Part shown: piece by piece, positions 12,345-36,058 of the stretch | Numbering within the stretch: the stretch's first letter is position 1 | How the letters are laid out: each line of letters opens with the position of its first letter | The notes under the pieces: model-generated | The model's database searches: none | The model's input: the letters and a program-made list of their open reading frames with translations, nothing else | What the model was told of the DNA's origin: nothing | DNA from: Candidatus Binatia bacterium | GTDB taxonomy: Bacteria > Desulfobacterota > Binatia > UBA12015 | Direction of reading: 5' to 3' | Length of the DNA: 64,000 nucleotides | Assembly: GCA_035651755.1 (NCBI GenBank) | Contig: DASRFA010000057.1 | Coordinates: 52,054 to 116,053, forward strand | Program-made: the position numbers and the translations under genes

Positions 12345-12417
12345 TGGGCCGCTAGCTCAGTTGGTAGAGCAGCTGACTCTTAATCAGCGGGTCCTCGGTT
12401 CGATCCCGGGGCGGCCC
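12345..12417 (+). tRNA. tRNA-Lys (anticodon CTT). It is a putative integration target for the downstream accessory DNA.
   Basis: Acceptor GGGCCGC/GCGGCCC, anticodon stem GCTGA/TCAGC with loop CTCTTAA, and T-loop TTCGATC. Confidence 0.85.
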
Positions 12418-12420
12418 ACT

Positions 12421-12449
12421 GCCGAAAGCCTCCGAGAGATCGGGGGCTT
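12421..12449. terminator. Hairpin immediately 3' of tRNA-Lys.
   Basis: CGAAAGCCTCC-gagagatc-GGGGGCTTTCG, an imperfect 10-bp stem. Confidence 0.35.
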
Positions 12450-12451
12450 TC

Positions 12452-12645
12452 GCGCTCTTCGCTGAGGGAATCGTATGCACGAAACCCTCGGGATGTTTCC
12501 ACTTGTTTCCACTCTCGAGTTCCGGGTCGTCAAGGCGGTCGACGGCGGCCGTGTTTCCGCCGGGAGCCAGGTGGCCGCACGTGTCGACCGTGATCTGGAT
12601 CGAGTAGTCCATCTGGAACTTGCCGTTTCGGCTTGACGCCGGCAT
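12452..12645 (-). pseudogene. C-terminal remnant of a tyrosine recombinase/integrase abutting the tRNA-Lys 3' end. The N-terminal two thirds are missing.
   Basis: The translation ...QMDYSIQITVDTCGHLAPGGNTAAVDRLDD... resembles the integrase terminus ...HSSIQ-T-DTYGHLxPG...A--RLD, with the catalytic Tyr position now Cys. A locally AT-richer block (GGATGTTTCCACTTGTTTCCACT) lies here. Confidence 0.5.
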
Positions 12646-12723
12646 TCGTGCCTTCGGTGCAACTGCAGTCCAGGGTCACGATCGAGTTTCTGCCGCCGCT
12701 CGACTGGTCGCGACTCGGGCGAC

Positions 12724-13281
12724 GTGCCGCGACCGATCTCGGCCGCCAAGGCCCGGCTCGCCAGGCTCAACCGCACGGCCTGGAGCCTGTACGGCAGCGT
12801 CTGGCGCTGCTTCGCGGCCGGGGACGACAAGACGCTGCGGGCCATGAAGTCCGTCGATTACGCGGCCGCCCACTACGATGAGGCCCCCGCCCTCGTCGTC
12901 GTCTGCCTGCGCGTCGTGCGCTACGGGCCCATCGTCAGCGGCTTCCGCCTTCCGTTCCCGGCGTTCTGGGACGCGATCTTCTACGGCACGGCCTTTCCGG
13001 CCGTGCAGAACTTGCTGCTCGCGTGCCGGGCCGCCGGCCTCGGCGCCGCGCTCAACGTGATGCCGCTGTGGAATCTGACACTCGCGCGCGCGACGCTAGG
13101 CCTTCCGCTGTGGGTGACGCCGGTAGCTGTCGTGCCGATCGGCTGGCCGATGGGCCGCTACGGCCCGACTTCGCGGCCCGCGGTCGAATCCGTCGTGCAC
13201 GTCGACCGTTGGGACAACCTCGCGTTCGCGTCCGGAAATCCCGGCGCGAACGCCGAAAGCGGGAAAGCGGGATCGCGATGA
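12724..13281 (+). CDS. Nitroreductase-family protein, apparently N-terminally short or truncated.
   Basis: C-terminal nitroreductase features (APALVVVCL..., QNLLLACRAAGLGAAL, PVAVVPIGWP). Only about 30 aa precede the core, and it is adjacent to the integrase remnant. Confidence 0.55.
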   Translation: MPRPISAAKARLARLNRTAWSLYGSVWRCFAAGDDKTLRAMKSVDYAAAHYDEAPALVVVCLRVVRYGPIVSGFRLPFPAFWDAIFYGTAFPAVQNLLLACRAAGLGAALNVMPLWNLTLARATLGLPLWVTPVAVVPIGWPMGRYGPTSRPAVESVVHVDRWDNLAFASGNPGANAESGKAGSR

Positions 13282-33724: not shown

Positions 33725-33736
33725 TGGCAGGTGACT

Positions 33737-34933
33737 CTACGCCGCGAAGTGATCGGTTAACGGCGTTTCAAATGAACGCGGCCCATCCGCGCTCTCGGCC
33801 TCCGATATCGCGTCGCCAACGGTCTTTACAAGCGCGCCCGAGGGGATGTGGGAATCGAGATCACACGGCCGTCGTCGATTAGCCATGCCGTGCGCTTCTG
33901 AGGGTGCCCGCGGGGACAGACGGTGCAAGATCACGACATCTGCTCCCACTCCTCGGCCTTCGGCGAGGTACATCGCGAGGTTGGGCTCGTCGCTCCCAGA
34001 CACATGCTCGGGACGCTTCGGAGCCCCGATCTCAGTGCGCTCGTGAATGCAGCGAGTTCGCCTGCGCTGAACGGGCGCATGCCGCGCAGGCGCTCGGCTC
34101 GAGCGTGCTTCGCGGCCCGGCGTCGCTTCCGGCCGTGCTCAAGGGCGCGCGTCGGGTTCGTTCCGAGGATCGCGTTGTCGACGGTGGAACTGAAGAGAAC
34201 CGACAACGTGGCGCGGGCGAGGCGAACCGTATTCTTGCCGAGCCCCTTGCGCCGCAGCGCTGTCAGGAACGCCTTCACGTGAGCGGCGTGGATGGCTCGC
34301 AACCCGGCGCCACCGAACGCGGGGACGATGTAGAGCTTGAGGATCTGCTCGTAGCTGCGGACGGTTCGGCGCGGAGGTGCGCACGCTCGTCCTCGATCCA
34401 GCGAGGCGCGTACTCGGCGAGAGTGATGTCCCGTTCCGAAGAGCCACGTAGCCCCATGAATCAGGCTCGCATACCGACATGCCATATCCACGTTCGAGGT
34501 GAAGAGCACAACCGCGCCGTTCATCGAGATTTGAGCAAGTTGTCGGCACAGCTCGGCCGTCGTCGTGAGACTGTGACGAATGACGGGGGTCAGGCGAGCA
34601 GAGAAGGTCGATCTCCTTGTGGAGTTGATGATGCCGACTGTTCTGCCTCTCCTTCGGATCCGTCCGCTCGAGCTCACGCAGGACAGCGACCACCTGGTCA
34701 AGGTCATTCGTGCCTTGAACGTCCACGTTGAGGCAGAGCGGCAATGCCTTGCGAAGGCGCTGTACCAGATGGCAGTCGTCGGCCTGGGACAGACCCTGAC
34801 CAGCAAGAACGACCAGCGGGCGATGGCTCATGTTCCGCGACCCAAGTCTGTCTGATTCGCGTGGAGGTGGACCGCCGACACCAATTGCCTCTTCCCTGCA
34901 TCGAGCTTGACGGACCTGTAGCGACCACGGCAA
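33737..34933 (-). pseudogene. Tyrosine recombinase/phage integrase, fragmented across at least 3 frames.
   Basis: A core-binding (SAM-like) domain is clear in one frame (RSYEQILKLYIVPAFG...HVKAFLTALRRKGLGKNTVRLARATLSVLFSSTVDNAILGTNPTRALE). Catalytic-domain-like pieces appear in other frames (RPFSAGELAAFTSAL; VVLAGQGLSQADD..LRK). Confidence 0.55.
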
Positions 34934-34967
34934 GCAGCGATCGTCCTACCGTGTCGGCGTGCACGCA

Positions 34968-35727
34968 TCAGTCGTCGTCCTCGTCGTCAGGATGAGAGCG
35001 AAGATGTTCCAGAGAATCTCGCACGTGAGCGATGAACTCGTCTGACGGAAGTACCTGCCCGTTCTGCGTCTTCGGGCCAGGGCCGAGGACCATCTGGCCG
35101 AGCTTCTTCTTCGTGTTTCTTCGATCCTCGAAGATCTCACCATCGAGCGTGGTCCAGCTGAAACTGCCGTGCAGCTTGTAGAGGCTGATCCCCCGCTGTG
35201 GCGTATCGAACGTTGCAGGATCCCACCTACCGGTGCGGCGATCAAATCCCGTGACAACAGGGGGCATCCGCCAACTCGCACGCCCGCTCGACGCAGAGGT
35301 CGTAGTTCAGCGTGAACACCTTGAGACGCTCGCCCGGTAGGAGTCTGAGCAGCGCCGCGAAGTAGCCGGGTTGCGGCTCAGTCTCGTTGACGATTTCGAC
35401 GACGGCGCGGTGCACGGTGTGGCTCTAGTACTCGCCGTAGAGCGTGCTGAGCCGACGGTCGTCGTACCAACCAAGAAGAGCGCGAAAATTCCGCGTCCGA
35501 CGAAACTCCTCCATCCAGAAGAACAGGCGCTCGAAGTTCGTCGTGACTGTCGGTTCCAACCAAGCAAGGCGGTCGTATACATCGCCGAACTCGTCGATCT
35601 CGGACCGAAGGCGTTCGACGAGTCGTGGCGTCAGCATTTCGGTGCTCGGAATGCCCGCGTCGACGGACGCGCCGGCACCCAGGACGACAATCGGGTCGTC
35701 GGGCGAGCTACCGGCCAAGGCGCACAA
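34968..35727 (-). pseudogene. SIR2-like (SIR2_2/DHS-like NAD-binding) domain protein, split by a frameshift or stop.
   Basis: N-terminal piece IVVLGAGASVDAGIPSTEML (Rossmann GAGxS) in ORF 35425..35727. A C-terminal piece with ISLYKLHGSFSW (the KLHGS motif) is in ORF 34968..35267, in a different frame. Confidence 0.5.
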
Positions 35728-36028
35728 TCCTCGTCATCTCCCTTCACCAGTAAGAGCAAGAGCTCAACCTTCCGCTTCGGTATGCCCTCGCCCAAGGTCA
35801 GCCGCGAATCGCAGCCCGCCACTCGCGGAGAGCGAGCCGGATCGGTCCCTCGAGGGACGTACCGTCACGCCGTTGGCGGACTGTCGCGAGCCGCGCCCTC
35901 GAGCGCGTGCAGACCATGCGTCCGGGCGTTCTGATTGCCGGGGGGCCCGCTGCGGCCGGGCTTCCCCGCACGGCTTCACGCCGGCAGCATGTTGGCGAAC
36001 CGCCCTTTTCGCGGGGCTGTAGATAGGC

Positions 36029-36058
36029 AATCAGCGGGTCGCGGTTCGCCGAGCCCGA
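36029..36058. repeat. Degenerate third copy of the tRNA-Lys 3' fragment.
   Basis: AATCAGCGGGTCGCGGTTCGCCGAGCCCGA: the first 12 nt are identical to the tRNA anticodon-stem/variable region, GGTTCG is retained, and the remainder has diverged. Confidence 0.35.

Follow-up and report, generated by a model that had tools for sequence, protein, structure and literature searches.

Serial integration and decay of tyrosine-integrase elements at a tRNA-Lys(CUU) gene as the probable origin of an accessory region in an uncultured Binatia bacterium

Genomic islands located in tRNA genes (tDNA) have been catalogued in Islander (Hudson, Lau & Williams 2015, PMC4383910), which uses the sublocation classes of Williams 2002 and records tandem arrays as well (125 arrays of at least two and 4 of at least three islands among 3919 islands; PMC4383910). 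In the standard model, the core of the element's attachment site (attP) takes the place of the 3' part of the tRNA gene, which is itself moved to the far end of the island (PMC4383910), with 2083 of the 3919 islands falling in the "anticodon-centred" attP class (PMC4383910). Integrase open reading frames (ORFs) that cross the attP core have been described for the myxophage Mx8 (IntP/attP; Tojo et al. 1996) and the fusellovirus SSV, as cited in PMC4383910, and families of integrative and conjugative or mobilisable elements (ICEs and IMEs) of Streptococcus show accretion into resident attL or attR sites, unrelated integrases, and decayed as well as integrase-less, att-bounded members (PMC5357655); accretion in tandem, deletion and integrase-less, cis-mobilisable islands in streptococci are also covered by Pavlovic et al. 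2004 and Bellanger et al. 2011. Here, we describe a locus that resembles these systems in a Candidatus Binatia bacterium, that is, the DNA to the right of a tRNA-Lys(CUU) gene within a stretch of 64,000 nt (contig DASRFA010000057.1, positions 52,054 to 116,053; hereafter, the window), which is the reverse complement of a 125-kb metagenome contig (ENA ERZ27279688, k141_668038) whose gene calls were used too. Our favored reading, to which we assign a probability of roughly 0.8, is that at least two unrelated tyrosine-integrase elements entered the 3' part of this tRNA gene in turn and then decayed in place.

The tRNA-Lys(CUU) gene (12346-12419, + strand, called as tRNA-Lys(CTT) by ARAGORN) is intact and is the last member of a Pro-Arg-His-Lys tRNA cluster, the other three genes of which occupy 11060-11384 (+ strand, ARAGORN); we take it to be the regenerated target, on the attL side. 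Its 42-nt att core, CTCTTAATCAGCGGGTCCTCGGTTCGATCCCGGGGCGGCCCA (12377-12418, +), extends from the anticodon loop through the discriminator base, and exactly this block is repeated, with 100% identity, at 9625-9666 of a contig from a relative (L048). The window carries a damaged form of the same block at 32099-32134 (+), a displaced tRNA-Lys fragment that is intergenic and in direct orientation relative to the tRNA gene (direct repeat 1, DR1). DR1 reads CTCTcAATCAGCGGG, followed by a 6-nt deletion (TCCTCG) and then GTTCGATCCCGGGGCGGCCCA; a 14/15 match at 32099-32113 precedes an exact core of 22/22 at 32113-32134 (E = 3.5e-7, blastn-short of the tRNA against the window), and the damage relative to the tRNA gene amounts to a T-to-C change in the anticodon loop plus the deletion. 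A reading of the window made earlier from sequence alone (the sequence-only reading) had placed a first repeat here with a 20/20 exact core; the repeat is real, with the longer core and the span given above. DR1 would be at once the attR core of the element on its left (island A) and the attL-side core of the DNA on its right.

Adjoining the tRNA gene lies the remnant of a first tyrosine integrase (integrase 1; 12420-12645, - strand), namely the last ~70 codons with box II and the tail, the N-terminal remainder being deleted. The corresponding ORF (12352-12645, -) contains ...YSIQITVDTCGHLAPGGNTAAVDRLDD and continues through the tRNA gene on the opposite strand. A Pfam search of this ORF gave no match; by tblastn, the stub matches the C-terminus of the L048 integrase (E = 6e-16, 55% identity over 91 aa) and its site is hit by 119 of the 120 collected members of the integrase 1 family, which bears out the earlier claim of an integrase C-terminal remnant next to the tRNA. 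Box II is the only catalytic box kept, and in it the nucleophile Tyr has become Cys (DTCGHL vs. DTYGHL). In L048, the order is tRNA-Lys (8697-8771), a 0.85-kb toxin-antitoxin islet, the exact 42-nt repeat (9625-9666) and, on the opposite strand, an integrase gene that runs through the repeat with its 3' end; the window stub is homologous to this integrase and lies at an equal distance from the core. The window ORF and the L048 integrase share the tail ...GPPRDRTEDPLIK, which is the reverse-strand translation of the tRNA core, and differ after it, i.e., SQLLYQLS beside the tRNA gene in the window vs. RPLKVRSK beside the P arm in L048.

Short repeats mark both arms of the presumed attP. The P' arm repeats lie within the stub, on the + strand of the stretch 12494-12558, at 12494 and 12504 (TGTTTCCAC, in tandem with 10-nt spacing) and at 12552 (TGTTTCC), while the P arm of island A (31974-32098, +) has TGTTTCC at 31977 and 31988 and a conserved box, GTTTCCGTTTTGGCCGGACGAACC, at 31989-32012; GGATGTTTCCACT is found at 12491-12503 and again at 31974-31986. 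TGTTTCC occurs seven times on the two strands of the window (128 kb), and five of these occurrences (12494, 12504, 12552, 31977 and 31988) are within 140 nt of the two cores, so that an AT-rich motif noticed earlier near the tRNA and the first repeat is confirmed as a repeat present in both arms. The window P arm aligns with L048 9501-9667 (72% identity over 169 nt, E = 6e-16); that is, homology covers the 125 nt to the left of each repeat, DR1 and the L048 copy, including TGTTTCCAC..GTTTCCGTTyTGGCCGGACGAACC, with the box identical at 23 of 24 positions. The corresponding P' position is occupied by a tandem GCTACCAC pair in L048 and by TGTTTCCAttttGTTTCC in a distant, low-GC member of the family beside tRNA-Thr (L052). 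Since the position of the tandem repeat is kept even though its sequence changes, a role at the DNA level is suggested, and the TGTTTCC repeats are most likely arm-type integrase sites, a candidate role that we infer from position and conservation; the P' arm repeats fall inside the coding sequence of the integrase tail, so protein-level conservation may contribute as well. It could be argued that the repeats and integrase-like stretches are chance resemblances in ordinary chromosomal DNA, given that short chance matches are frequent in high-GC genomes (e.g., 13 nt of the tRNA flank are found again at 35475); the E values of DR1 (3.5e-7), the stub (6e-16) and the P arm against an independent genome (6e-16) refute this explanation, to which we attach practically no probability.

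These features allow a mechanism to be proposed. The attP of each element would have carried a 42-nt core that copies the stretch of the tRNA gene between the anticodon loop and the discriminator base, and the integrase gene, on the opposite strand, would read into this core; upon integration, the tRNA gene would be rebuilt from the element's copy, and its former 3' part would come to lie at the distal boundary of the element. Because the identity begins in the anticodon loop, the crossover is presumed to lie there. With an integrase and a P' arm beside the tRNA gene and a P arm beside DR1, two halves of one attP bracket 12420-32134, which shows island A to be a fully delimited unit of 19.7 kb, its attL consisting of the tRNA gene, the P' arm and the integrase stub and its attR of the P arm and DR1.

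To the right of DR1, a low-GC block (32135-40500, GC content 0.60-0.64) holds a second island (island B) and possibly one more remnant. Island B would start at DR1, coincident with the sharp GC drop, and would keep the middle third of a second integrase. This integrase 2 remnant (33796-34442, -; ~200 codons) corresponds to residues ~57-250 of 428-aa relatives according to tblastn extents, that is, to the core-binding domain and the start of the catalytic domain, with at least one frameshift near 34370-34390; it has neither the arm-binding N-terminus nor the catalytic C-terminal ~180 aa and ends ahead of box I/II. Its SAM-like core-binding domain was detected by Pfam at E = 7e-5, under the gathering score, and 87 integrase relatives were found at E <= 1e-10 by phmmer. 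When the reconstructed integrase 2 was used in a word-based protein search, it matched only itself, and it was the exhaustive phmmer search that supplied the relatives. A second, fragmented integrase with a core-binding domain, as the sequence-only reading had it, is therefore backed by homology at 33796-34442 from Pfam, phmmer and tblastn alike. The remnant is on the expected strand and is oriented toward DR1.

The relatives of the two remnants indicate what their targets were. P0249 and P0252, the full-length proteins nearest to integrase 2 (43-50% identical to it in the core-binding region), have C-termini with YAHWIPRGDK... and ...PLIKSQLLYQLS, and each of the two directly overlaps a tRNA-Lys(CTT) gene, from which we infer that the integrase 2 remnant descends from a tRNA-Lys(CUU) integrase. 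P0252 is encoded on a contig (L054) where the same Pro-Arg-His-Lys cluster ends with tRNA-Lys(CTT), and the intact integrase 2-family element of L054 carries HTH_17 (excisionase-like), DnaB and SSB genes. Members of the integrase 1 family have the C-terminus DTYGHLxPGGNxxAVDRLDD followed by a variable tail, often the translated reverse strand of a tRNA, and in at least seven proteins this tail corresponds to tRNA-Lys (...LIKS...). The two remnants accordingly belong to different lineages, each found adjoining tRNA-Lys(CUU) elsewhere. More generally, many database integrases of both lineages end in the translated reverse strand of their target tRNA, which makes the tail a protein-level read-out of integration specificity, gene callers extending such ORFs into the tRNA genes. 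Among the integrase sets P0121-P0392, we observed tails such as ...LIKSQLLYQLS (Lys), ...LLITNQLLYRLS (Thr) and ...GIEPPT / GFEPAT (others). Separately, a 1.1-kb Logan contig (L053) contains at 204-583 a copy of the core-binding part of integrase 2 only (72% identical at the DNA level; the remnant, P0244, is 70% identical to integrase 2), and the homology ends on either side roughly where it does in the window, implying that a similarly truncated remnant exists in another organism; a contig of this size provides no genomic context.

Relatives were located through RNase PH homologues, which gave four useful contigs at 77-87% identity; the MGMT gene upstream of tRNA-Lys was of no use as an anchor, its best matches being 53% identical, scattered over phyla, and without synteny or tRNA-Lys. 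Pattern scans of metagenome contigs with the P-arm box GTTTCCGTTYTGGCCGGACGAACC and with the P-arm/core junction gave 0 matches in a collection that evidently lacks such samples, L048 itself not being recovered. The tRNA-Lys gene is identical between the window and L048, L050 and L051, three contigs that also keep rph-rdgB followed by all four tRNA genes (Pro, Arg, His and Lys(CTT)), while L049 keeps only Pro and Arg; with L054, the complete cluster is thus present in four contigs besides the window. None of the genes downstream of the cluster in the relatives found with RNase PH occurs in the window, which means that the region after tRNA-Lys differs in every lineage examined. In L048, two integrase-less islets were observed, i.e., the toxin-antitoxin islet mentioned above (8697-9666; DUF5615/DUF433, after tRNA-Lys(CTT), bounded by the 42-nt exact repeat) and a 1.8-kb islet with cupin and methyltransferase genes after tRNA-Arg(TCT) (3745-5661, 48-nt exact repeat), and repeats as perfect as these point to either a recent insertion or mobilisation in trans. 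In an 8.1-Mb relative (L049, 14218-18988), an intact 392-aa integrase adjoins tRNA-Arg(TCT) and two more copies of the tRNA-Arg 3' part follow (at about 17744-17795 and at about 18937-18988), with genes for resolvase, acetyltransferase and BrnT/BrnA in between; this is a tandem array located at another tRNA gene of the cluster. A further contig (L051, 42 kb) stops one base past tRNA-Lys(CTT) (13240-13315), and an assembly break at this point would match the expectation for variable or repeated insertion at the tRNA-Lys site. Taken together, L048 (Arg and Lys), L049 (Arg) and L054 (Lys) provide evidence that the four-tRNA cluster as a whole is an integration hot spot in this clade. The interval between tRNA-His and tRNA-Lys varies too, containing MGMT alone in the window (11582-12109), MGMT plus Ada/AlkA in L048 (5929-8465) and no genes in L050 and L054.

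Several observations weigh against the proposed history, and we consider them for the two islands in turn. For island A, Pfam scans of the cargo (12646-31973) revealed no transfer, replication or phage genes, leaving the stub as the sole mobility gene, and searches of the whole 12.6-40.5 kb interval with Pfam and PHROGs found no conjugation, mobilisation, replication or virion genes, that is, nothing by which the region would be classed as an ICE, IME or prophage. The GC content is 0.736 left of the tRNA gene, 0.698 in island A, 0.621 at 32137-36028, 0.636 at 36059-40500 and 0.703 beyond, with steps at 12420 (down ~4 points), at 32136 (0.70 to 0.60, abrupt) and at ~40500, within a window whose left part is at 0.73-0.77 and whose right part is lower and patchy. 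The tetranucleotide signature of island A is nevertheless host-like (r = 0.94, equal to the rest of the contig), so that either its donor resembled the host or the island is old; of the lower-GC patches noted earlier, the marked one is the block at 32.1-40.5 kb, with island A itself nearly host-like. Such composition, together with a cargo devoid of transfer and replication genes, could also be obtained if a small element, or two tandem copies, had integrated and 19 kb of host-like genes had been moved between attL and attR by a later rearrangement (insertion, inversion or recombination between copies), and the 0.85- and 1.8-kb islets of L048 do show that very small units with the same P arm exist. 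However, both arms share the repeat type and an orientation that fits a single attP, GC drops at 12420, no cargo gene was found downstream of tRNA-Lys in relatives, and cargo-only islands from compositionally similar donors are common, and we consider such a rearrangement very improbable.

For island B, the integrase 2 remnant does not adjoin DR1 and sits 1.66 kb from it, and neither an integrase 2 C-terminus nor a P' arm was detected at 32137-33795 (tblastn). The place expected for the catalytic domain and the P' arm is filled by a 1.43-kb gene for a right-handed beta-helix protein (32291-33724, -; GC about 0.61; Pfam Beta_helix E = 1.5e-7), and the left end of island B appears to have been remodelled, with the beta-helix gene in place of the integrase 3' half. 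On the right, a candidate second repeat (DR2; AATCAGCGGGTC-gc-GGTTCG, 36029-36058, +) lies between genes and is oriented like the tRNA gene; 36029-36040 match 12/12 (12-mer BLAST E = 0.33) and GGTTCG follows after a 1-nt indel. Its composition-aware Smith-Waterman score of 30.2, against a maximum of 22.4 in the rest of the real window, was attained in 2 of 150 (window composition) and 5 of 150 (low-GC composition) order-2 Markov simulations of 64 kb, so its significance is marginal (p about 0.01-0.03), suggestive rather than proof, and there is neither a P-arm copy nor a GC step at 36029-36058. The third repeat of the sequence-only reading is thus present with its 12/12 match and GGTTCG, at marginal significance. 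Island B accordingly has two candidate right ends, the weak 36029 repeat and the GC step near 40.5 kb, corresponding to an island of 3.9 or 8.4 kb, respectively. An 11-mer of the tRNA 3' flank close to that step (40381-40391) is at chance level (E = 1.3) and was discarded.

Listing all att-like copies, a check proposed together with the sequence-only reading, was carried out on the window and up to 7.3 kb past its end and yielded the strong DR1, the marginal DR2 and no further tRNA-Lys fragment, leaving the outer end of the array unmarked, and no displaced fragments of tRNA-Pro, tRNA-Arg or tRNA-His were found in the window. Nor was an empty site found among the relatives at 77-87% RNase PH identity, none of which shares the downstream genes. 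The separation of integrase 2 from DR1, the undetected P' arm and C-terminus and the marginal DR2 would all be explained if island A were the only tRNA-Lys integrant, with 32.1-40.5 kb being an unrelated acquired patch or old flanking DNA that happens to include an integrase fragment, and the match at 36029 being due to chance. Against this stand the strand of integrase 2 and its orientation facing DR1, its nearest full-length relatives being tRNA-Lys(CTT) integrases with the same geometry, the fall in GC precisely at DR1, and the tandem arrays at the same tRNA cluster in L048 and L049; we therefore view a single integrant as unlikely. Serial integration followed by decay at one attB, the core of the sequence-only reading, thus remains the explanation we favor, being supported by the L048 array, the two integrase lineages, the GC step and the pseudogenes; the features on which that reading was built are all present in the sequence, with coordinates off by ~2 nt at most.

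Under serial integration, B would have preceded A, if integration always uses the intact tRNA gene. A displaced fragment can serve as the integration site too (PMC5357655), which makes the order of arrival uncertain. No intact integrase was found in the window by family tblastn searches (an integrase-like tblastn match at 54354-54629, E = 6.5e-4, was dropped, having no Pfam support). The anticodon-loop substitution and the 6-nt deletion in DR1, along with the loss of both recombinases, make self-excision implausible, and the array is probably immobile on its own, although an integrase encoded elsewhere in the genome could still act in trans. That is, the earlier statement that no intact integrase remains and that the array is fixed stands in its first part for the window, and fixation applies to this contig only.

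It is also conceivable, albeit improbable in our estimation, that the Pro-Arg-His-Lys cluster of Binatia and neighbouring lineages serves as a multi-target platform on which integrase-less, att-bounded cassettes are shuffled in trans. Such cassettes would include the toxin-antitoxin (0.85 kb) and methyltransferase (1.8 kb) islets of L048 and, in the window, the 19.7-kb envelope/lipid-metabolism island A. If so, island A would be a within-phylum cargo cassette and not a dead element, which would account for its host-like composition, and control of the system would involve both the arm repeats within the integrase tail and the exchange of this tail upon integration.

As for gene content, gene calls and Pfam scans assign only metabolic and envelope genes to the cargo of island A, in the order nitroreductase fragment, APH-like kinase, class III aminotransferase, CarboxypepD_reg protein, zinc-dependent alcohol dehydrogenase (zinc-ADH) fragment, GT2, MocA oxidoreductase, GT4, GT2, SbmA/BacA-type ABC transporter (21693-23720), FAR-SDR fusion, double CoA-transferase III and two alpha/beta hydrolases. 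Pseudogenes, which had been noted earlier for the region, include the ABC transporter with two frameshifts and the truncated zinc dehydrogenase. The nitroreductase gene at the start of the island is probably a fragment as well; it and the integrase 1 stub are divergent and both are without their 5' parts, and a single deletion between them would account for both truncations. Two other candidate frameshifted genes, 14349-16727 and 17461-19625, were dropped, as gene calls and Pfam show adjacent genes instead (aminotransferase plus CarboxypepD_reg protein, and GT2 plus MocA oxidoreductase, respectively). The low-GC block also encodes Lcl_C/DUF1566 proteins (36113-36961, +, and 38129-39700, -; Pfam) and unassigned ORF fragments; a PHROGs search of the block returned nothing informative, and a peptide "LYKLHGSFSW" at ~35.1 kb (-), considered as a SIR2-like fragment, had no Pfam support. 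A 67-nt inverted match (79%) between 38566-38632, in one of the Lcl_C/DUF1566 genes, and 50339-50405 probably reflects paralogous domains, the frame 49693-53859, in whose 5' part the second segment lies, being called another Lcl_C protein by the contig gene calls.

Further right in the window, ORFs 42002-43876 contain at least ten head-to-tail copies of a 96-nt (32-aa) unit, 60-71% identical (42265-43428), gave no Pfam match and probably encode a repeat protein of unknown family. A tandem duplication with 85% identity (43932-44450 and 44739-45263) involves a LuxR-type response regulator beside a PAS histidine kinase. At 47148-49571, 33-nt terminal inverted repeats (GGTAGTGCCTCAGTTTGATT..., 85% complementary) surround a 2.4-kb low-GC (0.647) unit with a P63C-domain gene (47449-48756, -; phrog_2384, E = 2.5e-105) and an ORF (48378-49562, +) with a weak IS1-type transposase match; the unit looks like an insertion sequence or transposon with a phage-derived passenger.

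Serial integration, as favored here, sets the limits of some 20-28 kb of accessory DNA in a member of the poorly known phylum Binatota and accounts for its pseudogenes and GC patches. Further, with two lineages whose ORFs enter the target tRNA, the translated tail reveals the target directly from protein databases, and the conserved P-arm box and the TGTTTCC repeat could be used for finding more members. There is also a lesson for annotation, in that tRNA-adjacent "hypothetical" ORFs such as 12352-12645 arise from integrase stubs that read through the tRNA gene.

Compared with the described systems, the locus resembles Islander islands in having a regenerated tRNA gene at one end, a 3' fragment that was displaced to the other end and is in direct orientation, and a tyrosine integrase beside the tRNA gene, and it resembles the "anticodon-centred" class in that its identity block begins in the anticodon loop. 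For island A, we find what Islander looks for, namely an intact tRNA gene, a displaced direct fragment outside conserved coding sequence and a length between 2 and 200 kb; as to the integrase, the locus has remnants only (~70 codons in A, ~200 codons in B), and the per-island integrase filter of Islander would probably miss this array. In terms of a tandem array, island A has a fragment and a stub, while island B has an integrase remnant of a different lineage and a marginal distal fragment; unlike Islander entries, the second island is without a clean distal fragment and the host is an uncultured Binatia known as a metagenome-assembled genome. Neither remnant retains the catalytic R-H-R-Y residues of PF00589, and both are descendants of the family by homology and not functional members. 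As in Mx8 and SSV, the window ORF and the L048 integrase overlap the att core, so that integration alters the C-terminal end of the protein; unlike in Mx8 and SSV, where the core lies well inside the coding region and the gene is truncated or split (for Mx8, a change of integrase activity between IntP and IntX is reported), only the non-conserved tail past box II overlaps here. Island A and the integrase-less islets of L048 are similar to members of the streptococcal arrays, which differ in targeting the 3' ends of protein genes (fda, rpsI, rpmG and rplL) and in having conjugative or mobilisable modules, whereas the target here is a tRNA gene and no transfer module is left. Short repeats clustered in both the P and P' arms, with positions kept in L048 and L052, recall lambda-type attP sites, their role as arm sites bound by the N-terminal arm-binding domain of the integrase being putative. 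Nothing here departs from known patterns of tandem accretion, and the locus is an ordinary example of tRNA genes collecting foreign DNA; its own particulars are its host phylum, the use of one target by two integrase lineages, the conserved P-arm box and the four-tRNA hot spot.

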